Shown in pieces: positions 1-10,695 of a stretch of DNA of 10,695 bases. Source of the stretch: a virus; IMG/VR virus record IMGVR_UViG_3300000278_000048, positions 1-10,695 of that record; one strand, 5' to 3'. The notes under the pieces were generated by a model. That model saw only the letters and a program-made list of their open reading frames with translations. It was not told the DNA's origin and ran no database searches. How positions within the stretch are numbered: the first letter of the stretch is position 1; each line of letters opens with the position of its first letter. The position numbers and the translations under genes were made by a program.

Positions 1-1
1 T

Positions 2-103
2 GGAGATTTTGAATCTTTATATTTAATGGAAGGTTCAAATTCAATTACAGTTAGTGGAAATTTTAAGTGTGAAGTGATTCCAAACTGGAGGTGTGAACTA
101 TGA
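2..103 (+). CDS. 3' end of an upstream tail gene (Dit position; 5' truncated by window edge)
   Basis: The frame is open from the window edge (GDFESLYLMEGSNSITVSGNFKCEVIPNWRCEL*). Stop TGA 101-103 overlaps the ATG at 100 (ATGA coupling). The Dit assignment rests only on gene order ahead of a Tal-like gene. Confidence 0.4.
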   Translation, partial: GDFESLYLMEGSNSITVSGNFKCEVIPNWRCEL

Positions 104-1992
104 TCCAATTGTATAAGCCTTTTAATAAAAGCTATGAAAAGAATGGTGATTATGTTCTACATCCATCTAGCTGCGTTATGCGCGTTGTATTGAACGGCGA
201 ATGGTATGTTAAATTAGTACATCCTATTGATGATATTTCAGAAAATATCATTGATGGGGCAGTTTTAAAAGTTCCAACATTATTTAATAAAGAACAATTG
301 TTTATTATTCGTCATGTAGACAAAGCGGATTATGATGTTCAAGTAACAGCGTATCCGCTTTTTTACATGGTTAAGACAACACCGCCTTTGTGGGATACTC
401 GCTGTGTAAATATGAATGGTCAGGATGCGTTAAATACAATTTTAAGTGGAACGTCTTTTAAAGGAATTTCGGATATCACAGATATTTCTACATGCTATTT
501 TAATAAAATGAATCGTTTGCAGGCTATTAATGGGAATGCAGACAATACATTTATGAATCGGTGGGGTGGAGAAATTGTTTATGATGATTACACAATCAAG
601 ATCAATAAAAGAATTGGTTCTGATAAAGGTGCTAGATGTGAGTTCGGATACAATTTGAAAAGCGTCCAGGAAGTCGTAAACACAGAAAATTTAATCACAA
701 GAATATATCCGCAAGCCTACAATGGATATGTATTGCCAAATGAGGAGTGTATTGATTCTCCTTTTATCAATAATTATCCAGATGTATATTGGAGCTTTAT
801 CCAGTTTGATGACGTAAAGCTAAAAGAAGATGCACAGGAAGATGATGCATCGAATGGAATCACAGTCTGCGACACATTGGAAGATTTATATAAAGTGTTA
901 AGAAAAAGAGCATCTGATTATTTCACAGAAAATAATTGCGATGTTCCTAATATCACGTATAAGGTTGATATTGTAGATTTGGCAAGACTGGATGCTTATA
1001 AAGACATTAAAAATCTTGTTTCAATTGGCTTTGGTGATACAGCTCATATTAAACATAGAAAGTTGAATATCGAAACTAGGGCAAGATTAATTGAATGCGA
1101 TTATGATTGCATCTTAAAAAAATACGATAGTATGACTTTAGGTGATTATGAAACGAAGTATTTTGAAAATGCGGATAGTGTTATCCAGGCCGCTCAAAAG
1201 GTGATTGACAAGAAAACATCGAGTTTGATTGCAGAAAAGATAAAAGGAATTATTGATGCAACTCAGGCCTCTTTATATGCTCAAAGAAATGTTGCGAAGA
1301 AAATGGATTACAGAGCCATGAAGATGGAAGATTTAGATCCAGACAGTCCAACGTATGGAGCGACTTGTTATGGAACAAGCGGTTTGGAGTTTTCTGACAC
1401 GAGAAATGAAGATGATACGGATTGGAAGTGGGGCAATGCGTTTGGGCCAAAAGGTTTAATTGCGAATGCGATTATAACTGGGATTCTTTCAGATAAGAGT
1501 GGCAGCTTTTATTTGAATATGGATACCGGTGAGCTTGTAATGAATGATGGTACATTCAAAGGAATACTGAACACTGTTAAAGATATTAATGTTGGTGCGG
1601 AAATCAATATGCAGCCACGTGCTGAGGGAGTTTCACAAGGTTCCGTCTGGTCTGATATAAAGTGTGTTGATTCAGATGGTACTGTATTGCCTGAAAGGAT
1701 TGCATTTCGTTCTTTTAAACATGATGACGAGTATCTATCGCATAGTGTGACACTGATCAGTGGTGACACCAGCGTTTCGGTTAGCGATGATGGCACAATT
1801 TTACTTTTAAGCGGTGACAATAGGTTTTCTGTGACCAAAAATTATGTTCGTATGGATACTAAAAATTCAACTATATCTATTTCAGACAGTGCTAGCATCA
1901 TTACTTTGGACGGTAAAAAAGGGCTCACTGGTACTTATACTGTGACAAAATCAATTACAGTTGAAGCCGGAATTGTAGTAGGGGTTGAGTAA
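100..1992 (+). CDS. Tail-tip / tail-associated lysin-like minor structural protein (Tal; prophage endopeptidase-tail type)
   Basis: 630-aa ORF with SD GGAGGTG at 87-93, translationally coupled to the upstream gene. By recollection the N-terminal half reads like the siphovirus Prophage_tail (PF06605-type) family. It sits in the canonical position before the baseplate and fibre genes. Not verified by search. Confidence 0.75.
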   Translation: MIQLYKPFNKSYEKNGDYVLHPSSCVMRVVLNGEWYVKLVHPIDDISENIIDGAVLKVPTLFNKEQLFIIRHVDKADYDVQVTAYPLFYMVKTTPPLWDTRCVNMNGQDALNTILSGTSFKGISDITDISTCYFNKMNRLQAINGNADNTFMNRWGGEIVYDDYTIKINKRIGSDKGARCEFGYNLKSVQEVVNTENLITRIYPQAYNGYVLPNEECIDSPFINNYPDVYWSFIQFDDVKLKEDAQEDDASNGITVCDTLEDLYKVLRKRASDYFTENNCDVPNITYKVDIVDLARLDAYKDIKNLVSIGFGDTAHIKHRKLNIETRARLIECDYDCILKKYDSMTLGDYETKYFENADSVIQAAQKVIDKKTSSLIAEKIKGIIDATQASLYAQRNVAKKMDYRAMKMEDLDPDSPTYGATCYGTSGLEFSDTRNEDDTDWKWGNAFGPKGLIANAIITGILSDKSGSFYLNMDTGELVMNDGTFKGILNTVKDINVGAEINMQPRAEGVSQGSVWSDIKCVDSDGTVLPERIAFRSFKHDDEYLSHSVTLISGDTSVSVSDDGTILLLSGDNRFSVTKNYVRMDTKNSTISISDSASIITLDGKKGLTGTYTVTKSITVEAGIVVGVE

Positions 1993-1993
1993 T

Positions 1994-2482
1994 ATGGCTC
2001 AGCCTTTTTCTGTGTTCGTTGATACTTATAATGGTACAAGTCACAATGTAGATGGTGCATTTGGAGCGCAATGTTGGGACGGTTACGCGTTCTACATGAA
2101 GTGGTTAGGATACTCATATGCGAACTGCACGGCCACAGGCGGTGCTCAAGATATTTGGACTCAACGCGCTTCTAACGGAATGTTGAATTCATGTGATGTC
2201 GTATCCACTCCACAAAATGGAGATATCGCAGTTTGGGGTTCCAACATGGGAGGTGGTAAAGGTCACGTAGCCATGTACTACAATGGTCAGTACTTCGGCC
2301 AAAACCAGGGTAGAAGTGGTGGTGCGAATGGCGGACCATTTAATTTATTAGCGATTGGAACTGCTCCATTAGGCTATTTTAGACCTAAATGTTATGCAGA
2401 TGGTAGCGGTGGAGAAGTCGAAGAAAAAAAGCTAAGATTAACGCTTGTCAATGGATTAGTAGTAGGTATTGATTATGTGTAA
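1994..2482 (+). CDS. CHAP-domain peptidoglycan hydrolase, probably virion-associated
   Basis: ATG 1994 lies 1 nt after the Tal stop; the track's TTG at 1985 is an alternative start. CHAP signature: catalytic Cys in GAQCWDG, His in KGHVAMY, then QNQG. A Gly-rich segment follows. The short C-terminal tail resembles the Tal C-terminus. Confidence 0.85.
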   Translation: MAQPFSVFVDTYNGTSHNVDGAFGAQCWDGYAFYMKWLGYSYANCTATGGAQDIWTQRASNGMLNSCDVVSTPQNGDIAVWGSNMGGGKGHVAMYYNGQYFGQNQGRSGGANGGPFNLLAIGTAPLGYFRPKCYADGSGGEVEEKKLRLTLVNGLVVGIDYV

Positions 2483-2500
2483 AAGAAAGGAAGTGGTTAT

Positions 2501-3364
2501 ATGGAATTGATGAGAAGAGATTTAAAACTAATTGTTATTAAAAGCCTTGAATCATCAGAGGGTTCTGCACATGTGCCAGTAAATTTATCGATTGATGGTA
2601 CAGATAATTATGAATTCTATACAACTCAAATTCACATTCGTTACATTTATAAGAATAAAGTTTATGAAGAAATGTTGCCAATGGATGATGAAGGCTTTTA
2701 TATTCCTTCAAAGCCTTTTTTTGAAAGTGGGCCAATTGAACTTGCGGTTCATTTAATTAGTGGTGAAAAAAAATTCGTGACAAATGAGGTGTGCTTCGTT
2801 GTGCAACGTGCGCCAAATGGAAGTTCACAAATTGGACCTAGTGAATTAAGTTGGCAACAGCTAGTTGACCAATATGTCGAATCGAAACTTAACGTAATTA
2901 TGGCTCGAATTGACAATTTGACAAACAGTCAAACCAATTTAAATGAATTAATTGATATTCGTGTCGGATACAATGGAGTTAAGTATGATACTGCAGGTGA
3001 TTCGGTACGAACACAAATTTTCAATTTACTAAAAACTCAAAGATCGTTGAAAGATTTAATTGATTCAAATCAAAAAGTTGTCAATGAACGTATGGATTCA
3101 TTTACAAATTTAGGCGAGGGCTCAACAACCGCAGATGCAGAATTGATTGATGCAAGAATCGATTTTGAAGGAAATAAGAAAAAAAGCTTAGGTACTTCAA
3201 TTCGTGAGGCTGATAAAAAAATGTTCAACATGATTCAAAGCATGATTGAAATGCTGCTTAACAATAACTTTAGTGCAAATTTAATGATTGACTTCGATAA
3301 TTATGTCGTCGATGAAAATGGCGATAATGTATTAGCCGATTGGGCATACAAGGTGAAATCATGA
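2501..3364 (+). CDS. Baseplate / tail-fibre protein, BppU-like (tentative)
   Basis: 287-aa ORF with SD GAAAGGAAGTGG upstream. It has two ELID(I/A)R...G...(Y/S).. motifs (ELIDIRVGYNGVKYDTAGDSVRTQI and ELIDARIDFEGNKKKSLGTSIRE), typical of Firmicute phage baseplate-upper and fibre proteins. It is located right after Tal and CHAP. Confidence 0.55.
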   Translation: MELMRRDLKLIVIKSLESSEGSAHVPVNLSIDGTDNYEFYTTQIHIRYIYKNKVYEEMLPMDDEGFYIPSKPFFESGPIELAVHLISGEKKFVTNEVCFVVQRAPNGSSQIGPSELSWQQLVDQYVESKLNVIMARIDNLTNSQTNLNELIDIRVGYNGVKYDTAGDSVRTQIFNLLKTQRSLKDLIDSNQKVVNERMDSFTNLGEGSTTADAELIDARIDFEGNKKKSLGTSIREADKKMFNMIQSMIEMLLNNNFSANLMIDFDNYVVDENGDNVLADWAYKVKS

Positions 3365-3660
3365 GACAAGGAACAACACCTACAATTCAAATCACGGTCA
3401 ATTATATTGATTTAGCAGATATGGAACATATCTATGTGGTATTTGAGCAAAATGGATATTTATTGAAAAAAAGCATGTCAGATTTAAAAATCGAAAACAA
3501 TGTTATTTCAGTTATTTTAACGCAGGAAGAAACATTAAGTTTTAAAAACGGAAATTGCAACATCCAATTAAGAATGATTACATATGACGGCATAGCGATG
3601 GCTTCGCCGATAAAAACAGTTAATGTGTATAGTGTATTAAATAAGGAAGTGATTACATGA
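3361..3660 (+). CDS. Small (~99 aa) fibre/baseplate accessory protein, probably Ig-like (hypothetical)
   Basis: ATG 3361 has SD AAGGTG and an ATGA overlap with the preceding stop, so I prefer it to the track's TTG at 3340. By recollection the MRQGTTPTIQITV N-terminus is typical of ~100-aa proteins next to Firmicute phage fibre genes. Function unknown. Confidence 0.6.
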   Translation: MRQGTTPTIQITVNYIDLADMEHIYVVFEQNGYLLKKSMSDLKIENNVISVILTQEETLSFKNGNCNIQLRMITYDGIAMASPIKTVNVYSVLNKEVIT

Positions 3661-3950
3661 TTCTGGTAAGCAGTATAGAAATCGATGTTAAAGACGAATC
3701 AGATCACATTCAGTTCGGTTTAAATGAACAATACATTGGAACAACGGATTATGAAAAGCTCAGAAACAAGCCAAAATTAAATGGTAATGAAATCATTGGA
3801 GAGGTTGAAGAAATAGACCCAACAGTTCCAGCGTGGGCGAAAGCAGAAACAAGACCGGTATATACACCGGAGGATATTGGAGCTATGGCAGAAGGTTCTG
3901 TAGCTTCGGTGTCAACAAATGAATTAGATGAAATATGGAATAGTTTATAA
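3657..3950 (+). CDS. Tail-fibre-associated protein (hypothetical)
   Basis: ATGA overlap with the upstream stop. It carries DYEKLRNKPKLNGNEIIG and PAWAKAETRPVYTPEDIGA, both recurrent motifs of Firmicute phage fibre proteins. The C-terminus STNELDEIW matches the C-terminus of the next gene. Confidence 0.6.
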   Translation: MILVSSIEIDVKDESDHIQFGLNEQYIGTTDYEKLRNKPKLNGNEIIGEVEEIDPTVPAWAKAETRPVYTPEDIGAMAEGSVASVSTNELDEIWNSL

Positions 3951-3963
3951 GGAGGAAAAAAGA

Positions 3964-4571
3964 ATGGCTATTGAATATTTAGATAAGAGTGGATAACTCT
4001 ATTAATCAGTAAAATTAAAGCTGCATTAGGCGAAAAAGTTGATGTGGTAAGTGATAAAGGCTTATCGACAAATGATTATACGAATGCAGAAAAAAGCAAA
4101 TTAAGTGGTATCTCAAGTGGTGCTCAAGTTAACGTGATTGAGTCAGTTAAAGTCAACGGTACAAAAGTTGAACCAAGCTCAAAAGCCGTAGATATCGCAG
4201 TGCCTACAAAGACTTCACAACTTACAAATGACAGTGACTTCCAAAATGCTACACAGGTTAATTCAACGATTACAGGAAAAGGATATCAAACGGAATCACA
4301 AGTACAATCGTTGATTAATTCGGCAGTAGGAAATATCACATCTATTAAGTACGAAAAGGTGATTTCATTACCTGCTGCAGGCTCAAATAACGTTATCTAT
4401 TTAATTGCACATTCACATGGAACTCAAGATATTTATGATGAGTATATTTGGCTTGCAGAATCCAAAACGTTTGAAAAGATTGGTAATACAGATATTGATT
4501 TATCAGGATATGTTAAGAGTTCAGAATTAACTGCAATCAGTACATCAGATTTAAACACAATGTGGGGTTAG
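3964..4571 (+). CDS. Tail-fibre protein, apparently frameshifted near codon 10 (possible pseudogene or sequencing error); the track ORF 4044..4571 is its distal part
   Basis: GGAGG at 3951-3955 plus ATG 3964 gives MAIEYLDKSG, then TAA at 3994. The frame of the 4044 ORF is already open from 3987 (EWITLLISKIKAALGEKVDVVSDKGLSTNDYT...). The GTG at 4044 has no convincing SD. The body carries GLSTNDYT, AQVNVIE, VPTKTSQLTNDS and IYL...YDEYIW fibre motifs. Confidence 0.6.
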
Positions 4572-4574
4572 TAT

Positions 4575-4820
4575 ATGGCTATCCTATTCAAAGACAAAGC
4601 TTCTATTCAGTGGCTTGTCGATAGAATAAAGTCTGTAACCACATCACATAACGCATTGAATCAAATGGTGATGAATAATCACTTTACTACAAATTTGAGC
4701 GCAACAAGCGCTCAAGATTTAGTAGATGAAAAAGGAAATACAATCTTAGCCGATTGGTCTTATGAAGTAGCAAGTGGAGAAGTCGGTACGGATTGGAAAT
4801 ATAAAGTCAAGGAGGAATAG
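4575..4820 (+). CDS. Small fibre-module protein (hypothetical, 81 aa)
   Basis: ORF lies 3 nt after the preceding stop. The region NNHFTTNL...VDEKGNTILADWSYEV parallels the C-terminus of the 2501..3364 product. No family recognised. Confidence 0.55.
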   Translation: MAILFKDKASIQWLVDRIKSVTTSHNALNQMVMNNHFTTNLSATSAQDLVDEKGNTILADWSYEVASGEVGTDWKYKVKEE

Positions 4821-4823
4821 AGA

Positions 4824-5756
4824 ATGGCAGGAAAGCAAGTAAATGAATTAGACGCATTGCCTAGTTTTACCGATACAAGCTTATTGCCTGTGCATAATGG
4901 CGCAGGATTGAAAAAAGGTTTATTATCGCAATTGGCAAATTATTTAGGAAATAAATTCAGTAATCCGAATTTATTGATTAATTCGGATTTTAAAATTAAT
5001 CAAAGAGGTGCTACAAGCTATGAATCACGAGGCTATTCTGTAGACAGATGGAAGATTTGGAATGTAACAGTAACGCCAAGCACAAGCGGAGGAATCACTG
5101 TAAAGAATGACAAATACGCAGATACCGGAACATTTCTACAATACTTAGAGAATGCAACGGAAGGTGATTCAACATTATCGTGCTATGTAACATCTGTAAG
5201 CGGAACAGCGACAATGCTAGCGGATGATAATTCACAAGTTGTATTGAAACAAGGATTAAATGTTGTGCATACAAGCGCTAGTACAAAAGCGTTTACGATC
5301 TTTTTAAACCAAGGAACTAGCATAACCCTTAAATGGGCTAAACTGGAACAAGGTAAGCATGCTACTGCTTTTGTTCATCCAATTTATAGCGAAGAATACT
5401 TGAAATGTATTTGGTTTTTTCAACCGCTTGTCGGAGCTAGAAGTGGTTATTTTTCAAACGAACGTATTTACATTAATATTCCGGAGGTTAACTCAATGAG
5501 AACTTCCAAACCATCCGTCGATTCAAGTAATATAACTTTAGAAGGATGGATTTATGCAGGAGCAAACGCAAACGCTATCAATGTAGGGCGCTCAGATATC
5601 ACTAATGTAAGCATAGACAATTACAAAGAGTTAGTATTAACACCTTCAAGTACATTGCTTACTAAATTAAAGCAACGTGACATGTCGACTATTAGTTATG
5701 TAATTGATGTAAGTGGTGGAATTTATCTAGACGCAGAAATTTATGATAATGAATAG
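4824..5756 (+). CDS. Receptor-binding tail-fibre protein (putative)
   Basis: SD AAGGAGG at 4809-4815. By recollection the N-terminal NELD...LLPV...KK...L and NLLINSDFKINQRG...GYSVDRW motifs are characteristic of distal fibre / receptor-binding proteins of Firmicute phages. It is the last large structural gene before the XkdW/XkdX-type genes. Confidence 0.6.
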   Translation: MAGKQVNELDALPSFTDTSLLPVHNGAGLKKGLLSQLANYLGNKFSNPNLLINSDFKINQRGATSYESRGYSVDRWKIWNVTVTPSTSGGITVKNDKYADTGTFLQYLENATEGDSTLSCYVTSVSGTATMLADDNSQVVLKQGLNVVHTSASTKAFTIFLNQGTSITLKWAKLEQGKHATAFVHPIYSEEYLKCIWFFQPLVGARSGYFSNERIYINIPEVNSMRTSKPSVDSSNITLEGWIYAGANANAINVGRSDITNVSIDNYKELVLTPSSTLLTKLKQRDMSTISYVIDVSGGIYLDAEIYDNE

Positions 5757-5767
5757 GAGAAGTAAGC

Positions 5768-6112
5768 ATGGTAAGAGTATATATTAATAAAGATTCAGAA
5801 AATAACATTACATCTATTAATTCAGAAATCTTCTTATCAGAAGAAGAAATGTCAACTATGACAGAGATTGACAAAGGGAAAGGCGATAAATACGCTCATG
5901 CTCAAGGTTTATATCTAGAAAAAGGATTAGTTGATGAACATGGAAGATATAACTACAAATATGTAGCAGGAAAAGTGATTGAGGTTGCAGAAGAAGATAA
6001 ACCTAAAGTTGTTGATCCAGAACAACAAGCAACGGCACAGGATAAAATTGAAGCGCAAGTCATGTATACAGCATTAATGACAGATACACTTCTAGAAGGA
6101 AACGAGGCCTAA
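5768..6112 (+). CDS. Hypothetical protein in the XkdW position (between fibre and XkdX)
   Basis: 114-aa ORF with SD AGGAGAAG. The acidic C-terminal half ends in AQVMYTALMTDTLLE. The assignment rests on synteny with PBSX-like late regions only. Confidence 0.5.
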   Translation: MVRVYINKDSENNITSINSEIFLSEEEMSTMTEIDKGKGDKYAHAQGLYLEKGLVDEHGRYNYKYVAGKVIEVAEEDKPKVVDPEQQATAQDKIEAQVMYTALMTDTLLEGNEA

Positions 6113-6115
6113 TCT

Positions 6116-6241
6116 ATGTTTGAAAAAATCAAAAGATTTTATAATCTAAAACTATATACAGATAAGCAAGTAAGAAAGTTTTGCGAAAAAGGAATCATTA
6201 CAGCTGATCAGTATAAGCAAATCACTGGTGAAAATTATTAA
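6116..6241 (+). CDS. xkdX: XkdX-family small phage protein (41 aa), not in the ORF track
   Basis: ATG 6116 lies 3 nt after the previous stop, with GAGG at 6104-6107. The product MFEKIKRFYNLKLYTDKQVRKFCEKGIITADQYKQITGENY* fits the XkdX pattern (F..Y......t...v..fV.kg.IT..qY..ITG) and the expected position before the holin. Confidence 0.8.
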   Translation: MFEKIKRFYNLKLYTDKQVRKFCEKGIITADQYKQITGENY

Positions 6242-6244
6242 CAA

Positions 6245-6266
6245 GGCTAGAATATCTAGTCTTTTT
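6245..6266 (+). terminator. Weak hairpin plus T5 between the structural and lysis modules
   Basis: GGCTAGA (6245-6251) pairs with TCTAGTC (6255-6261) with one G-U pair and a 3-nt loop, followed by TTTTT at 6262-6266. The stem is short, so it is probably leaky if functional at all. Confidence 0.3.
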
Positions 6267-6291
6267 ATATACGCCATAGGAGGAACAAAAA

Positions 6292-6558
6292 ATGGATTTT
6301 GCAGAATTAAATAATTATTATGTTTTGGTGGTAGTGGTAGCATGCTTGATTGTAGGCTACATTTTAAAAACTTCGTTTGAATCATTCCCAAACAAGTACA
6401 TTCCTACAGTGCTTGCATTTACTGGATTGGTTTTGAACCTGACGGTCAGTGGAATGTCGATTGAAAATGCAGTTTATGGAGCACTGATGGGCTTATCTAG
6501 CACAGGCATGCATCAAGCATTTACAAGATTCATCGAAGGCAACACAGAAGAAAAATAA
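6292..6558 (+). CDS. Holin
   Basis: SD AGGAGG at 6278-6283. The 88-aa product has hydrophobic helices (YYVLVVVVACLIVGYIL, IPTVLAFTGLVLNLTV, AVYGALMGLSSTG) and a charged C-terminus (EGNTEEK). The NKYIP motif and the position upstream of the lysin fit small Firmicute phage holins. Confidence 0.7.
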   Translation: MDFAELNNYYVLVVVVACLIVGYILKTSFESFPNKYIPTVLAFTGLVLNLTVSGMSIENAVYGALMGLSSTGMHQAFTRFIEGNTEEK

Positions 6559-6575
6559 AGTAGGTGGCTTGCAAT

Positions 6576-6971
6576 ATGGATTTTGTGATTACAAGCCAAC
6601 AAATTGTATGGGTTTGTGGGTTTATTGCTTCTATTTGGGGAGTGGTAAAGATTATCAAGGAATTAAAAAAACCAAGTGATGATTTAAAGGTTATGGTGAA
6701 ACGACATGATGAATTGTTGCACCGTGATAACGAACGATTAAATTCACTTGAAAAGATAACATTGAATCAGGAAGGTATCAATCGCAAATTAGAAGAGCAT
6801 ACTCGTATTCTATCAGATCATGACGATCGGTTAGAAGAAGATAAAAAGCGAGGTGATCTGATGCTAAAAGCAAACATGGCCATTCTTGATGGAATGCTAT
6901 CAGAAGATGATAAAGAAAGCCTAAAGGCTACACGAAAGGAAATTCAGGACTTTTTAGTCGAAAAGAATTAG
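6576..6971 (+). CDS. N-terminally membrane-anchored coiled-coil protein of the lysis cassette (function unknown)
   Basis: ATG 6576 has SD AGGTGG at 6562-6567, so I prefer it to the track's GTG at 6564. One TM helix (IVWVCGFIASIWGVV) is followed by ~100 highly charged residues with helical, heptad-like character. It lies between the holin and the endolysin. Confidence 0.6.
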   Translation: MDFVITSQQIVWVCGFIASIWGVVKIIKELKKPSDDLKVMVKRHDELLHRDNERLNSLEKITLNQEGINRKLEEHTRILSDHDDRLEEDKKRGDLMLKANMAILDGMLSEDDKESLKATRKEIQDFLVEKN

Positions 6972-6980
6972 GAGGTATTA

Positions 6981-8042
6981 ATGATGAATATTGTAAAAAA
7001 TTTAGTAAGTACAAGTTTATATTATTGTAAATGTCCTTTTGACATGAATCCGACTCGTATTGTAGTTCATAATACCGCTAACGATGCTTCGGCTCGAAAT
7101 GAAATTCAGTATATGATTAACAATCGAAATGAGGTTTCATACCATTACGCAATTGATGATAAAGAAATTGTTCAAGGTATTCCCGAGAATAGAAACGCTT
7201 GGCATGCTGGAGATGGTGGTAATGGAATTGGAAATAGACAAGGTATTGCTATTGAAATCTGTTATTCAAAGTCAGGTGGGGCAAGATTTGATGCTGCTGA
7301 ATTATTAGCTGCTAAATTCATTGCATCTAAATTAAAAGAAAAAGGATGGGGAATTGATAAAGTAACTAAACATCAAGACTACTCAAACAAATACTGTCCA
7401 CACAGAACTTTAGATAAAGGATGGCAACGATTCTTAAACATGATTCAAGCGGAATTAGGACAAACTACTCCAAGTTCACCAAGCGCTCCAAGTACTCCAA
7501 GTGGAGAGAAGTATTCTACAGGTACTCCAATTTGCACTAACACATTAAGTGTTAATTGTGATGGTACTGGTAAAGTTTATAAAGGCGATTGGAGCGGTTC
7601 AATCGGCAAAGTTATTAAAGGTTCTAAATATCCATATCGTGTTGATCGCAATGGTGTAGCAATTGGATGGACGAATGATGTGGGTATCGATACAGACCCC
7701 CATACACCAGTAGGCGCTACACAGTCTAGCGCAGAAGCTATCGACCAAATCTTGCATGAAGGAAGCTATGTTACATCTGTACATATGAAAATTGGTAACC
7801 AAGGCTTGAAGAAAATTGGCGATGATTTATGTGCATATCTTGCACAATTAGGTGGCTGGTTTCCAATTCGCTTAGTCGATAAAGTTCCAAATTCAGATGG
7901 ATATAATGACAATGTACTGCATACCACAAATGCAGTAGTCTACGTATCTAGAATCAGAGTCGATGCAGTGAATGTTCAAAAGAATATTGTCAAGATTGGT
8001 GGTGTTTGGGTTGATCCAACACCGTTAACAGAAATTGCATAA
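6981..8042 (+). CDS. Endolysin: N-acetylmuramoyl-L-alanine amidase (Amidase_2/PGRP type) with Pro/Ser linker and unassigned C-terminal wall-binding region
   Basis: SD AGGAGG at 6970-6975. Predicted zinc ligands are H in IVVHNTAN, then H and C in KHQDYSNKYCPH, with the H-x7-C spacing seen in T7 lysozyme-type amidases. AWHAG is present. The linker is TTPSSPSAPSTPS. About 170 C-terminal residues match no family I can name. Confidence 0.9.
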   Translation: MMNIVKNLVSTSLYYCKCPFDMNPTRIVVHNTANDASARNEIQYMINNRNEVSYHYAIDDKEIVQGIPENRNAWHAGDGGNGIGNRQGIAIEICYSKSGGARFDAAELLAAKFIASKLKEKGWGIDKVTKHQDYSNKYCPHRTLDKGWQRFLNMIQAELGQTTPSSPSAPSTPSGEKYSTGTPICTNTLSVNCDGTGKVYKGDWSGSIGKVIKGSKYPYRVDRNGVAIGWTNDVGIDTDPHTPVGATQSSAEAIDQILHEGSYVTSVHMKIGNQGLKKIGDDLCAYLAQLGGWFPIRLVDKVPNSDGYNDNVLHTTNAVVYVSRIRVDAVNVQKNIVKIGGVWVDPTPLTEIA

Positions 8043-8082
8043 AGAGTAAAAATAACACATTCAACTATTTTTTCGTATATTT

Positions 8083-8116
8083 AGCCTATGATTAAGTTCA
8101 TAGGCTGTTTTTTTTA
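8083..8116 (+). terminator. Rho-independent terminator of the late/lysis operon
   Basis: Perfect 9-bp stem AGCCTATGA (8083-8091) / TCATAGGCT (8098-8106) with a 6-nt loop, followed by GTTTTTTTT. Confidence 0.85.
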
Positions 8117-8124
8117 TGTTCAAA

Positions 8125-8147
8125 ATGTATGCTCATAGCATAATGCT
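8125..8147. repeat. Left copy of an imperfect direct repeat bracketing the reverse-strand cassette
   Basis: ATGTATgctcATAGCATAATGCT here versus ATGTATattATAGCATAATGCT at 9020-9041, including an identical 13-mer. It also contains the inverted half-sites TATGCT/AGCATA. Confidence 0.6.
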
Positions 8148-8165
8148 TCGCCTGTGATTGATTTT

Positions 8166-8198
8166 TGATAAAAGAAAAAAGCCTTTTTAATAGGCTTT
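8166..8198 (-). terminator. Rho-independent terminator of the reverse-strand cassette
   Basis: On the - strand the stem AAAGCCT / AGGCTTT (8198-8192 / 8184-8178) has a 7-nt loop and overlaps the stop codon. It is followed by TTTTTTCTTTTATC. Confidence 0.7.
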
Positions 8199-8763
8199 AA
8201 TCCAAATCAATTCCGTAGTAATTTCCAAACGAACAATTCTGATAAACTTCATTAGCTTCATCCCAGTCTTCGCAGAAGTACTCGCCATACATTTTAACGT
8301 GTTTTCCATATCCAACTTCGATGGCAATGTATCCGTTTATTTTGTGATTATCGTCAGAACCAAATTCATCATGAATTGCTTTATCATTACTTGCACATTC
8401 GTATGATCCATTAACTTCAGTATAAATTTCACATGATGTATTTATTTCGCAGATTCTATCTTCAACGTCTGAAGGCCTTCCAAAATATCCTTTGAATTTT
8501 CCAAAATCATCATAATCCTTTAGTTCCTGGATGAATCGGTTAAAATAAGCTTCGTCTTGATTCATTTTATCGATGCTAAACATATCTAGTCCATCCAATG
8601 CGTTTGCTTTCTCAATGGTTTGATTCATTGCGTCTCTAATAACATCCGCTTGAGATACTCCTAAAGCTTTGCAAGCTTGTTTAAATTCTTCGGCAAAATC
8701 ATTTTTGAATCTAGCGGAAATAATTGTCATTTTTTCTTTGTTGTACTTATCTTGTGGTTTCAT
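8197..8763 (-). CDS. Ribbon-helix-helix DNA-binding domain fused to a strongly acidic, Cys/aromatic-rich domain of unknown family
   Basis: SD AAAGGAG lies 6 nt before the ATG at 8763. The N-terminus DKYNKEKMTIISARFKNDFAEEFKQACKALGVSQADVIRDAMNQTIEKA has the RHH layout: beta strand, helix, G-x-S turn, helix. Residues ~56-188 have about 30 D/E versus 11 K/R and 5 Cys, with no recognised motif. Confidence 0.65.
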   Translation of the reverse strand: MKPQDKYNKEKMTIISARFKNDFAEEFKQACKALGVSQADVIRDAMNQTIEKANALDGLDMFSIDKMNQDEAYFNRFIQELKDYDDFGKFKGYFGRPSDVEDRICEINTSCEIYTEVNGSYECASNDKAIHDEFGSDDNHKINGYIAIEVGYGKHVKMYGEYFCEDWDEANEVYQNCSFGNYYGIDLD

Positions 8764-8892
8764 GTTATTCTCCTTTGTTTCTTAAATACATAGCATAAAG
8801 TAATTTAATTAATGCGCTTAATACCAAAAGTCTTCCTAAAAGTTCTAGCATAATTTTAAATGAATAAGTATAATATAGTTGAGGGAGGGAAG

Positions 8893-9003
8893 TTATAAGT
8901 ACTTCCCAATAATCTGAACGATTACCCCAACGATTAACTCCAAAATTGCTTGAATAATTAGCGATGTCCAATCGATTTTGGAGCTTTTCTTTTTCTCATT
9001 CAT
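8893..9003 (-). CDS. 36-aa single-pass membrane peptide (not in the ORF track)
   Basis: GGAGG (9015-9011), a 7-nt spacer, then ATG at 9003. The product is MNEKKKSSKIDWTSLIIQAILELIVGVIVQIIGKYL*. It lies directly downstream of the near-consensus promoter. It is a better candidate than the overlapping 68-aa ORF, which starts at TTG and has no SD. Confidence 0.6.
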   Translation of the reverse strand: MNEKKKSSKIDWTSLIIQAILELIVGVIVQIIGKYL

Positions 9004-9019
9004 CTCTTCACCTCCTTAC

Positions 9020-9041
9020 ATGTATATTATAGCATAATGCT
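9020..9041. repeat. Right copy of the imperfect direct repeat; overlaps the -10 element of the cassette promoter
   Basis: ATGTATattATAGCATAATGCT shares a 13-mer plus ATGTAT with 8125-8147. Confidence 0.6.
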
Positions 9042-9054
9042 AGCATATATGCAA
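9026..9054 (-). promoter_or_regulatory. Sigma-A-type promoter with a palindromic candidate operator in the spacer
   Basis: On the - strand: TTGCAT (9054-9049), a 17-nt spacer, then TATAAT (9031-9026) preceded by TGC (extended -10). The spacer contains the perfect 10-bp palindrome ATGCTAGCAT (9037-9046). Confidence 0.7.
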
Positions 9055-9115
9055 GCACTAAATGAAATATTTTTCTTTTTTATATAATATAGTAAGGAAT
9101 TCAAGCATTAAATAT

Positions 9116-9139
9116 AAGCGCAGTTTCTGCGCTTTTTTT
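9116..9139 (+). terminator. Orphan + strand Rho-independent terminator with no + strand gene upstream
   Basis: Stem AAGCGCA(G) / (C)TGCGCTT with a short TTT-centred loop. It is followed by a run of 7 T, the first two of which belong to the stem. On the - strand it is followed only by ATATTTAATG, so it is oriented for + strand transcripts. Confidence 0.55.
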
Positions 9140-9154
9140 ATTGCCCAAAATCAC

Positions 9155-9202
9155 TGGCATATTTTTCGAGAATTATTGGCATAATTTTTGGCATAAATTT
9201 TT
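9155..9202. repeat. Three same-orientation TGGCATA(A)(A)TTTTT repeats
   Basis: TGGCATATTTTT at 9155-9166, TGGCATAATTTTT at 9177-9189 and TGGCATAAATTTTT at 9189-9202, in the AT-rich junction. Confidence 0.6.
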
Positions 9203-9438
9203 CTAAAAAATAAAATTTTATAGAGAAAATGTAGAAAATAGAATATAAATGTGAGAATATAAGAGTGGCTAGAGACATATATATAATATAGAGAGAATTT
9301 TAATTTTTTTTATGCAAAATTCCATTAAAAAAAGGATGATTTTTCGATATTATAACCAATCTATAACCGTGTGAAGATTATACTAGTCTCAGATAATGAA
9401 AGGGTTATATCGATAACTATAATAAAGGAGGACTTTAT

Positions 9439-10695
9439 ATGCTAAAGAATTTGAAAAAAGCAGCCGCAATTGTATTATCATTTGCGATGGCCGTTCAGTT
9501 TGGCTTAGCAGACTCTTATTATGTAAATGCGGTGGAAGAACCGGTTGAACCTCAACAAGAGGAAACAAAAACAACAACGACTACACCACAAGAGCAAGAA
9601 CAAGAGGAAGTGCCAACAACTGAAGAAGAAACTCCTCAACAACAGGAAGAAGGACAACAACCTGCAGTAGAGGAAGAGCAGCCTGCAGCAGAAGAAGCAC
9701 AACCACAGCCACAGCCTGTTGAACAAGCAGAGGTTAAGGTTTCTTATGTAAAAGAAGATGATACCGATTTGATGGAATCTGTAACAGGTACTTATGATGT
9801 TGGTTACAGATTGGATCAAGATACAAATGTATTCAAAGAAGCTCATGAAGCATTTGAATTTGAATATGCATTTGTGAATGGTAACAAAGAAAACAAAATC
9901 ACTAAGGATCAAGTTAAAGCTTCTGGTTTAACAGTAACTAGTGATATGACAAGTTTAACTCTTGTTTATAAGGAAAAGGCTAGTACAGAAAAGCCTAAGA
10001 AAGCTAACAAGCAAGAACCTGCTAAAACAGAAACTACTTCTGAAAGTGATGATGCTTCTGATGCCGACACGACTGAATCTCAAGAAACGGCAGTACAATT
10101 AACTGAGTTCTTTGTCGTAGCAAGTCAGAACCAAGTAACAAAAGGTGAAACAGCTCAATTAACATTGACTATTAAACCTGATAACTATCCTAATAAAGAT
10201 GTAACTTGGTCTTCATCAAATGATGCAACAGCTACAGTAGATAAAAATGGTTTAGTAACAACTCATGAAGTTGGAACTGTAACAATTAAAGCAACATTGA
10301 AATCAGATCCAGCTATTTCATCAAGTGTAACAATCGTTGTCAATCCAATTAAGGTAAGTAAGATTACTGTAAATGGTTATGATAAAGAATATTTAGTAAA
10401 AGATGATACTGTTATATTAACAACAACCGTTGAGCCAAGTGATGCAGCTAATAAGAGTATTGTTTGGTCTTCATCAAATGAAGAAGTTGCAACAGTTGAT
10501 CAAAACGGTAAAGTAACAGCAGTAGGTCAAGGTACAGTTTCAATCAAGGCAATGAATGATGATTCAGGTGTCTATGGTGAACAAGTAATTACTGTTTATG
10601 ATGATACACCAATTACAGAATCTGTTAATGTATGGGTTACAAATGAATCTCAGGGTGTTTCATATCAATTTAATATTCCAGTAAATGGAAATGAA
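9439..10695 (+). CDS. Secreted surface protein with an acidic P/E/Q-rich linker and at least two Big_2 (bacterial Ig-like group 2) domains; 3' truncated by the window end
   Basis: SD AAAGGAGG at 9424-9431, 7 nt, then ATG at 9439. The frame is open for 419 codons to the window end, which is probably why it is absent from the track. The signal peptide is MLKNLKKAAAIVLSFAMAVQFGLADSYYVNA. Big_2 signatures: TAQLTLTIKPDNYPNKDVTWSSSNDATATVDKNGLVTTHEVGTVTIKA and VILTTTVEPSDAANKSIVWSSSNEEVATVDQNGKVTAVGQGTVSIKA. Confidence 0.85.
   Translation, partial: MLKNLKKAAAIVLSFAMAVQFGLADSYYVNAVEEPVEPQQEETKTTTTTPQEQEQEEVPTTEEETPQQQEEGQQPAVEEEQPAAEEAQPQPQPVEQAEVKVSYVKEDDTDLMESVTGTYDVGYRLDQDTNVFKEAHEAFEFEYAFVNGNKENKITKDQVKASGLTVTSDMTSLTLVYKEKASTEKPKKANKQEPAKTETTSESDDASDADTTESQETAVQLTEFFVVASQNQVTKGETAQLTLTIKPDNYPNKDVTWSSSNDATATVDKNGLVTTHEVGTVTIKATLKSDPAISSSVTIVVNPIKVSKITVNGYDKEYLVKDDTVILTTTVEPSDAANKSIVWSSSNEEVATVDQNGKVTAVGQGTVSIKAMNDDSGVYGEQVITVYDDTPITESVNVWVTNESQGVSYQFNIPVNGNE

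Follow-up and report, generated by a model that had tools for sequence, protein, structure and literature searches.

The 10,695-nucleotide stretch analyzed here, referred to as the window (IMG/VR virus record IMGVR_UViG_3300000278_000048, positions 1 to 10,695), carries on its plus strand the late genes of a temperate siphovirus and, beyond the lysin gene, possesses a compact cassette on the minus strand. The cassette consists of a promoter, the genes of two small hydrophobic peptides, which are designated as pepA and pepB, a stem-loop at the pepA stop codon, and a gene coding for a 188-amino acid (aa) protein, in which a domain of the ribbon-helix-helix (RHH) type is followed by a strongly acidic domain (Table 1). 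We propose, with a probability of about one half, that the cassette is an autorepressed prophage moron, the payloads of which are the membrane peptides and an acidic effector fused to the repressor; the functional part of this proposal is its weakest link. The widespread occurrence of a two-peptide plus RHH cassette in Erysipelotrichales prophages appears to be new, as does the orphan acidic domain, for which a confident but unmatched fold is predicted, along with the presence of unrelated acidic extensions on one conserved repressor. By analogy with known systems, the unit resembles a textbook moron in organization and the protein resembles AcrIE10 in architecture, and no description of the cassette was found in the open-access literature.

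An earlier note on the sequence had outlined the cassette as a promoter, a 36-aa peptide, a 129-nt spacer, and a 188-aa protein, with a terminator facing that of the plus-strand late operon. Both terminators were found, the 36-aa peptide was present with its Shine-Dalgarno (SD) sequence and ATG, and the open reading frame (ORF) of the 188-aa protein was confirmed. The spacer, however, proved not to be empty: it encodes pepB, the stop codon of which is 1 nt upstream of the ATG of the 188-aa gene, and the intercistronic stem-loop had likewise been overlooked. The three genes, pepA, pepB, and the gene of the RHH-acidic protein, are translationally packed and under purifying selection. The ratio of nonsynonymous to synonymous substitution rates (dN/dS) was 0.05-0.20 for the 188-aa gene, both domains of which are constrained, 0.4-0.5 for pepA, and 0.06-0.23 for pepB between close alleles (small counts). 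As for the promoter, which had been called near-consensus, the spacer, the perfect TG-extended -10 element, and the conserved layout bear out this description, but the -35 element matches TTGACA at 3/6 positions, and because of this weakness a generic promoter scan did not list the cassette promoter. The layout is common to all variants of the cassette, distant ones included (TTGACA/TTTACA/TTGCAT, 17 nt, TATG(C/T)TATAAT).

The assignment of the N-terminus to the RHH fold was supported by profile matches that were consistent though sub-threshold. The RHH_1 profile matched the N-terminal 62 aa with an E-value of 0.0044 and 17.4 bits (cut-off 20.5), the RHH_3, RelB, and DUF6290 profiles were also sub-threshold on the window protein, and PHROG families of CopG/Arc-like repressors matched at 1.6e-4 and 1e-3. 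No PDB sequence matched the domain, and its AlphaFold2 (AF2) monomer model was poor. The alignment displayed a strand-helix-GxS-helix pattern, with the strand MTIISARF, a first helix ending in LG-V-S, and a second helix QADVIRDAMNQTIEKA, and A17, F23, E26, F27, K28, A30, C31, Q38, M46, I50, and A53 were invariant. In this domain, dN was 0.02-0.06 compared with a dS of 0.5-1.1. A profile search with the RHH domain retrieved 638 proteins, nearly all of which are RHH-only proteins of 60-75 aa; many of them bear PF10723 (RepB-RCR_reg), and their named sources include Coprobacillus, Solobacterium, and Anaerolactibacter. The domain thus resembles, in its strand-helix-G-x-S-helix pattern, CopG/RepB-RCR_reg and the Arc/Mnt-like proteins. 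CopG is an autorepressor whose operator overlaps the promoter of its own operon. Unlike these proteins, the window protein is below the Pfam thresholds, is encoded by a prophage rather than by a rolling-circle replication (RCR) plasmid, has an additional domain of 133 aa, and presumably controls peptides rather than a replication initiator.

Upstream of the RHH gene, the same promoter, a pepA, the hairpin, and a pepB were present in each context that was examined. Given that they are present in every context, we regard the promoter, pepA, the stem-loop, pepB, and the RHH domain as the conserved core; many Erysipelotrichales prophages, differing in type, carry it at their ends. As an alternative to its own reading, the earlier note had considered a membrane peptide with an RHH regulator, and this better describes the conserved core, of which two peptides plus an RHH-only protein are the common form. 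In a survey of 57 loci carrying the RHH gene, pepA-type and pepB-type ORFs were present at the same positions in nearly every locus with sufficient upstream sequence. The peptides (22-45 aa) exist in about 10 very diverged versions, and the design that survives is a charged end and one hydrophobic helix. Their genes are uncalled in most source records and called in a few relatives. No family match was obtained for pepA in Pfam, PHROG, PADLOC, or NCBIfam, and searches with eight peptide variants against Pfam, NCBIfam, and PHROGs returned only noise and no toxin family. Hairpins equivalent to the stem-loop were predicted in 13/14 sequence-diverged variants, with z scores of -2.7 to -6.7, and the hairpin at the pepA stop codon has no following U run. 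Its candidate roles are those of an attenuator, an mRNA stabilizer, or an SD-pairing or sequestering element. Conserved sequestration of the SD by the CU-rich tract was rejected, given the predicted SD unpaired probabilities of 0.17-1.0 across variants, and nothing in the cassette came near any gathering score in Rfam.

Two single-member clusters, P0054 (110 aa) and P0041 (104 aa), have pepB fused in frame to the RHH protein, which either is a frameshift or assembly artefact or hints at contact between pepB and the repressor, as in a membrane-tethered repressor. Caution of another kind applies to L001 (a contig of GCA_037022285.1), in which the host topA, gid, and xerC-like genes are broken into several ORFs at 4332-8628 and the cassette differs by indels of 1-2 nt from L002 and L003, to which it is otherwise identical. 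Since this assembly is apparently error-prone, the apparent loss of pepA in L001 is not to be trusted.

Type I toxins carried by prophages, such as Fst, TxpA, BsrG, and the toxins of C. difficile phiCD630, share several features with the cassette peptides, namely their small size, one hydrophobic helix, a charged tail, carriage by a prophage, and a structured mRNA. It is unlikely, though deserving of serious weight, that the cassette is a toxin-type module for prophage addiction or abortive infection. In such a module, pepA and pepB would encode membrane-damaging toxins like those of type I, which the RHH protein would repress, and the role of an antitoxin, or of a sensor whose capture by an invader protein would lift repression, would fall to the acidic domain (in RHH-only forms, to the N-terminal extension). 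Besides the Fst/TxpA-style peptides, this explanation is favored by the tight autoregulation implied for the operon, with the repressor gene last and translationally coupled, by the pairing of the CU-rich tract after the conserved hairpin with the pepA SD in some predicted folds, by the physical link hinted at by the rare in-frame pepB-RHH fusions, by the MazF/PemK-like cargo found at the same site in other phages, and by a RelB/DinJ-type antitoxin label given to one cluster member by JGI (the Joint Genome Institute). However, the unit contains no gene for a protein toxin of a type II family: its other ORFs are the two peptides, beyond its terminator lies the lysin, and no RelE, ParE, or YafQ-type toxin gene is adjacent. 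Likewise, the disordered C-terminal tail of RelB/DinJ-type antitoxins is absent, being replaced by a compact alpha/beta domain with a mean predicted local distance difference test (pLDDT) of 91. Unlike type I systems, the cassette has tandem peptides and a co-transcribed protein repressor but no evident antisense RNA, no Rfam match, and no match to a Pfam or NCBIfam toxin family; the sole convergent promoter-like site, on the plus strand at 8724-8753, is weak (9/12 matches). Moreover, a near-ideal pepA SD and a strong promoter would be odd for a lethal toxin, sequestration of the SD is not conserved, free-standing homologues of the acidic domain have no neighboring peptides, and a transcriptional repressor alone cannot yield post-segregational killing.

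The claim that the cassette is a moron withstood comparison with related phages. A contig from IMG/VR, L059, has a lysin flank 98% identical to window positions 7901-8147 and lacks the cassette; in it, position 8147 is immediately followed by 9042, and the 13-mer ATAGCATAATGCT, which in the window borders the cassette on both sides, occurs once, showing that the cassette is an 894-bp indel. L059 still has the promoter half with the -35 element, which makes an origin by deletion more probable than a target site that never held the cassette. Of 34 phages that have a related lysin and for which 900 nt or more of sequence is available downstream of it, 4 carry the cassette and 30 lack it. In most of these phages the lysin gene is directly followed by the integrase gene, and others carry different cargo there, identified by eye in L070, L104, and L065 as a MazF/PemK-like protein of 163 or 268 aa and an NYN/LabA-like protein of 245 aa, suggesting a general hotspot of accessory or conflict genes at the lysin-integrase site. 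Homology common to the cassette alleles ends about 25 nt upstream of the -35 element (window position ~9077-9079). The cassette occurs in several settings, namely with a 353-365 aa amidase and a Holin_5_2 holin, with a 612-aa amidase and a Holin_4_1 holin, with a GH25 lysin and a Holin_1 holin in Solobacterium prophages, and at the c-repressor end of Mu-like prophages, and its host flanks vary, including dprA/topA, a peptidase M20 gene, proBA, and CorA. The earlier note had asked whether relatives are confined to prophage ends next to lysins; they always lie at a prophage end, beside any of at least three lysis-module types or at the Mu-like repressor end. An att junction beyond the lysin had also been anticipated, and the similarity of the window to phages integrated elsewhere stops at ~9310, just past the cassette. 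Since sequence common to differently integrated phages ends there, we place the prophage/host junction at ~9310, which is probably the att junction. Taken together, a moron organization, with its own promoter and terminator, a patchy distribution among close relatives, and sharing across unrelated backbones, is well supported by these sequence comparisons.

In temperate streptococcal phages, the lysis module is followed lastly by that of lysogenic conversion (PMC3952083). Exclusion morons such as Ltp (PMC3952083) resemble the cassette in being patchily distributed, self-contained promoter-terminator units located after the lysis genes near the attachment site and in having membrane-associated products, as is predicted for the cassette peptides. 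Ltp-type proteins are, however, lipoproteins of ~140 aa encoded between int and the repressor gene, whereas the cassette encodes two tiny peptides and a dedicated repressor, with no homology to them. The position beside the lysis genes would also suit a lysis-timing accessory, with holin, antiholin, or spanin-like peptides, and pepA gave a very weak match to the LydA holin (E 0.067); along with a functionless, decaying remnant, this is hardly credible. The LydA match is not significant, the cassette lies on the opposite strand, has a promoter and a terminator of its own, and also occurs at the Mu-like repressor end, far from lysis genes, and the conservation of its ORFs and purifying selection oppose decay. 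A role of the RHH protein as an excisionase was rejected as well, since the cassette is also present in Mu-like transposable prophages, always with the peptides.

The downstream copy of ATAGCATAATGCT resembles a second promoter core that has decayed. Separately, phages with the 353-365 aa lysin share a conserved segment of ~60 nt between the convergent terminators (window 8108-8177). It holds a TAGCAT-GT-ATGCTA palindrome, which is seen downstream of the cassette terminator in L005, L008, L012, L030, L033, and L034; in the window this region is the downstream 13-nt repeat, resembling a degenerate promoter core. The sequence TTATGCTA occurs in four copies in the cassette compared with 0.69 expected per window, and it was considered as a repeated operator. 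This idea was rejected because the copies correspond to the extended -10 element, two conserved pepB codon sites, and the 13-bp direct repeat at the indel boundary. A second operator 3' of the terminator was rejected on the same grounds.

The composition reported earlier for residues 56-188 was exact (30 D/E, 11 K/R, net -19, 5 Cys), and the isoelectric point was 4.2; net charges in the family range from -2 to -20. The cysteines of the domain are not conserved, and a zinc-binding role for the five was rejected, C31 in the RHH domain being the sole invariant cysteine of the protein. The absence of a recognizable family was also borne out. No Pfam, PHROG, PADLOC, or PDB sequence matched the domain, PADLOC also gave nothing for the entire 188-aa protein, and a profile of residues 59-188 retrieved 21 proteins among 1.84 billion representative proteins. 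Most of these relatives are free-standing acidic phage proteins of 105-135 aa, and in P0015 and P0023 the domain is fused to N-terminal DNA-binding-like segments. A first AF2 run with the full-length protein and 12 close homologues reached a pLDDT of 60 and was replaced by a domain-only run with 19 diverse sequences, which gave a model with a pLDDT of 91.3 and a predicted template modeling (pTM) score of 0.83. In the modeled fold, three helices are followed by a short hairpin, after which come a further helix and a long antiparallel sheet of three strands. Foldseek found no match to this fold in the PDB (best E 0.5, template modeling (TM) score <0.3), and the sole match in BFVD was an uncharacterized 109-aa gut siphovirus protein (E 1.2e-3, TM 0.53-0.61). 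The dN/dS of the domain was ~0.04-0.26. Its most conserved positions are mainly aromatic or glycine, with no invariant polar constellation, which argues for a binding module rather than an enzyme. The free-standing homologues are encoded in same-strand arrays of small acidic ORFs of unknown function on phage-like contigs, with no adjacent membrane peptides; P0020, P0015, and P0023, which are single stand-alone homologues, were not found in IMG/VR. Judged from these sequence distributions, the acidic domain is a separable module and a rare add-on to the core. On L036, the contig of the free-standing homologue P0022, the array of small acidic ORFs is preceded by an amidoligase-like ORF of 462 aa and a glutamine-amidotransferase-like ORF of 317 aa with an N-terminal Cys (44-2487), both identified by eye.

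Two other C-terminal extensions were found on the cassette RHH domain, a helical, Tyr-rich one of 85 aa (L047, L048, and L050) and one of 81 aa (L049). They and the window domain are mutually unrelated (hhalign probabilities of 0.1% and 1.6%), all three are acidic (net -19, -15, and -10), and truncated extensions are common. This shared acidity points to another explanation, namely that the acidic domain is regulatory, as a sensor or autoinhibitory domain whose DNA-like surface competes with the operator or binds a signal protein, with the peptides as the sole payload. The lability and frequent truncation of the extensions fit this explanation, as does the majority of RHH-only cassettes, which implies that the extension is dispensable for the core; likewise, DNA binding by AcrIE10 is modulated by partner binding (PMC13530269). 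Nevertheless, we regard a purely regulatory domain as rather unlikely, because the domain also stands free in phage gene arrays and forms a separate first gene in L069, where intramolecular regulation is impossible, and because purifying selection on it is comparable to that on the RHH domain.

In L069, an operon at the lysin-integrase site begins with a free-standing acidic-domain homologue (hhalign 93%, E 2.7e-7), continues with an acidic ORF of 97 aa, and ends in an RHH-like gene of 60 aa, the product of which shares 53% identity with the N-terminus of P0023, a fusion protein. Its promoter, TTTACA-N17-TATACT, is rich in palindromes and is repeated before the next gene. Together, L069, P0023, and the window suggest that the acidic domain has repeatedly come under a small RHH-type regulator, fused or unfused, in two RHH lineages. 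The L069 layout resembles that of anti-CRISPR (Acr) genes with anti-CRISPR-associated (Aca) repressors: small acidic genes are followed by an unfused RHH gene, and the promoter is duplicated before the neighboring gene, as described for the RHH regulator Aca14 (PMC13551039). AcrIF25 also has an RHH domain (PMC13551039), and AcrIE10 of Klebsiella plasmids combines Acr and Aca functions in one protein, an RHH-Acr fusion (PMC13530269). Aca repressors, including Aca14 and AcrIE10, exert negative feedback on their own strong promoters (PMC13551039, PMC13530269). The cassette protein and AcrIE10 both consist of an N-terminal RHH domain and a C-terminal effector domain (a putative one in the cassette), are encoded by the last gene of a short operon, and are carried by mobile elements, and the candidate operator palindromes of the cassette, like the inverted repeats of AcrIE10, lie over the -35 and -10 elements of the operon's own strong promoter. 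In the cassette protein, the RHH domain (residues 1-55) is joined to a domain that is predicted to fold independently and that also exists free-standing. However, the two proteins share no sequence or fold similarity: the Acr domain of AcrIE10 consists of five short helices, whereas the cassette domain has three helices, a beta-hairpin, and a long three-stranded sheet. Unlike described acr operons, the cassette begins with two membrane peptides, and its host is a Gram-positive gut anaerobe. AcrIIA1-type autorepressor-effectors are likewise bifunctional and encoded in prophage accessory loci, but they contain a helix-turn-helix rather than an RHH domain and show no homology.

The earlier note had drawn a parallel with anti-CRISPR and DNA-mimic proteins, which is an architectural analogy only; the L069 operon fits its logic, but no sequence or fold similarity to known anti-defence proteins was found. 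We consider it quite improbable that the cassette is a dedicated anti-CRISPR or DNA-mimic anti-restriction system, in which the 188-aa protein is the payload and the peptides are incidental or non-coding. The strong acidity across the family, the Acr-Aca-like architecture with the L069 operon, and the RHH-Acr precedent (PMC13530269) favor such a system; against it, no coding part of the cassette is as widely conserved as the peptides, no invariant surface motif was identified in the domain, its conserved residues being mainly aromatic or glycine, and it resembles no known Acr, Ocr, or ArdA structure or PHROG family. The putative effector domain showed no homology to known Acr proteins by PDB sequence, PDB Foldseek, annotated BFVD entries, or PHROGs, and, although a strong negative charge is shared with Ocr/ArdA, neither Foldseek nor PDB sequence searches matched them. 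Given the lack of homology and of partner genes, we assign the cassette protein to no known Acr, Ocr/ArdA, toxin-antitoxin, or holin family.

We favor the reading that the cassette is an autorepressed moron of a temperate Holdemanella phage, lying between the lysin terminator and the att/integrase arm. In this moron, an RHH dimer or tetramer would bind the palindrome between the -35 and -10 elements and repress its own operon, and such negative feedback at a strong promoter would first produce a burst and then keep expression homeostatic. The operon would be expressed from the prophage, given its orientation and its location, which is not within the late operon but next to att/int or downstream of a c repressor of the Mu type. 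The two peptides would insert into the host membrane as the main payload; being conserved and fast-diversifying, they most plausibly act on the membrane in phage-phage conflict, most likely in superinfection exclusion or abortive infection. The acidic domain would be a protein-binding effector riding on the repressor, making the protein a bifunctional regulator-effector, and anti-defence would be its most likely class.

Several points weigh against this reading. Expression in lysogens is assumed from position and orientation alone. From the sequence we infer that the promoter palindromes are a candidate RHH operator; the earlier note had pointed to one inside the promoter, and a 13-bp palindrome is indeed there, but alone it is marginally non-random, about 5% of shuffles equaling it (p ~0.05), and several other relatives have weak promoter palindromes, whereas the palindromes at this place in L005 and L041 are perfect over 18 bp (p <= 0.004). 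In the window pepB has no SD, which is present in some relatives, and its dN/dS is ~1 between distant alleles (small counts). The peptides are shorter than characterized exclusion proteins, the L069-type operon was seen once, and neither the peptides nor the acidic domain showed similarity to known exclusion, toxin, defence, or anti-defence proteins in Pfam, NCBIfam, PHROG, PADLOC, PDB, or BFVD.

As a long shot, the cassette may be a decoy-triggered membrane switch, in which the acidic, DNA-like domains, variable and unrelated among cassettes, bait DNA-binding proteins of an invading phage, the repressor is thereby drawn away from its operator, and a burst of peptides blocks or aborts infection; RHH-only cassettes would be its constitutive, homeostatic version. 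Such a switch, if real, would amount to a defence system coupled to transcription that is minimal in size (<1 kb) and made of peptides overlooked by gene callers.

Table 1. Features of the cassette and of its surroundings in the window
Feature	Position	Strand	Description
Promoter	9054-9026	-	TTGCAT (9054-9049), 17-nt spacer, TGcTATAAT (-10 at 9031-9026)
10-bp palindrome	9043-9052		GCATATATGC; over -35
13-bp perfect palindrome	9042-9030		TAGCATTATGCTA (TAGCAT-T-ATGCTA); between -35 and -10, over extended -10
13-nt direct repeat, upstream copy	9029-9041		ATAGCATAATGCT; cassette boundary
13-nt direct repeat, downstream copy	8135-8147		ATAGCATAATGCT; cassette boundary
Shine-Dalgarno sequence	9017-9011	-	AAGGAGG; 7 nt 5' of pepA ATG; conserved in variants
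pepA	9003-8893	-	ATG at 9003; 36 aa; basic N-terminus MNEKKKSSK, one hydrophobic helix
Stem-loop	8907-8887	-	GGGAAGU/ACUUCCC; pepA stop codon across loop and 3' arm; then CU-rich tract UCCCUC
pepB	8851-8765	-	28 aa; hydrophobic; charged C-terminal tail (MLELLGRLLVLSALIKLLYAMYLRNKGE)
188-aa ORF	8763-8197	-	
RHH domain	8763-8599	-	N-terminal, residues 1-55; presumed autorepressor
Acidic orphan alpha/beta domain	8598-8197	-	residues 56-188 and stop codon
Intrinsic terminator	8198-8178	-	7-bp stem, then T run; first bases overlap stop codon of 188-aa gene; faces lysin terminator
Prophage_tail protein	100-1992	+	
CHAP protein	1985-2482	+	
Tail-fibre-like ORFs		+	among the late genes
Holin_5_2 holin	6292-6558	+	
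Amidase_2 lysin	6981-8042	+	
Lysin terminator	8082-8107	+	
Signal-peptide protein with Big_2 domains	from 9439		exceeds the window end

The best genome match of the 188-aa protein was in an uncultured Holdemanella metagenome-assembled genome (95% identity), and the protein is also encoded on 19 IMG/VR viral contigs; its cluster at 90% identity comprises 486 member sequences from gut metagenomes. No match was found among phage GenBank records by megablast of window positions 6000-9440 or by tblastn of the 188-aa protein and P0020. Five terminator-like sites were detected compared with 0.7 expected. Between the cassette and the host junction lies a phage arm (9078-9310) that shares 95-97% identity with L002, L003, and L031, whose integration sites in the host differ from that of the window. 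Within this arm are a hairpin resembling a bidirectional terminator (9116-9134) and, on the minus strand, three direct repeats of ATGCCA (9194-9189, 9182-9177, and 9160-9155); the latter are candidate integrase arm-type sites, since similar TGGCATAT repeats flank the integrase gene of L069.

Between the holin and lysin genes, a 135-aa ORF (6564-6971) encodes a hydrophobic N-terminal segment and a coiled-coil-like tail, with weak matches to phrog_1009 (5e-6), a family of unknown function, and to phrog_1625 (3.8e-4), labeled "bacteriocin production or immunity", and it is kept beside the holin in relatives as a gene of 131-132 aa (L005, L009, and L012). The window ORFs 2501-3364 and 4575-4820 have a common C-terminal motif, LADW(A/S)Y(K/E)V. 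In relatives, a tyrosine recombinase (Phage_int_SAM_3 and Phage_integrase) is encoded between the tail-fibre genes and the holin gene (L001, 13014-16886; L003, 4200-8064; L005, 13363-14548; also L007, L009, and L012) and is followed by short Gp10_C fragments in alternating orientation, which looks like an invertible tail-fibre (host-range) switch; the window has no recombinase at this place. In L051-L054, a Solobacterium-type prophage, a 400-aa reverse transcriptase (RVT_1) is encoded just 5' of the lysis genes (e.g., L051, 7287-8489) and may belong to a diversity-generating retroelement targeting a tail gene.

If our reading is true, a compact unit of two peptides plus an RHH repressor has been delineated that is common among the prophages of a major order of gut Firmicutes and whose peptide genes routine annotation misses; in addition, the few known effectors joined to their own repressor gain a member with a confident but unmatched predicted fold. 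Should the function prove to be mundane autoregulation of a membrane protein, the cassette would still be a well-delimited moron family. The window or L038 and L059 would provide a natural pair with and without the cassette for experiments. Effector-repressor fusions have been productive guides to new anti-defence genes, and the conserved RHH gene and promoter could, on our reading, be used as an aca-like, guilt-by-association anchor for the cargo of Erysipelotrichales phages.

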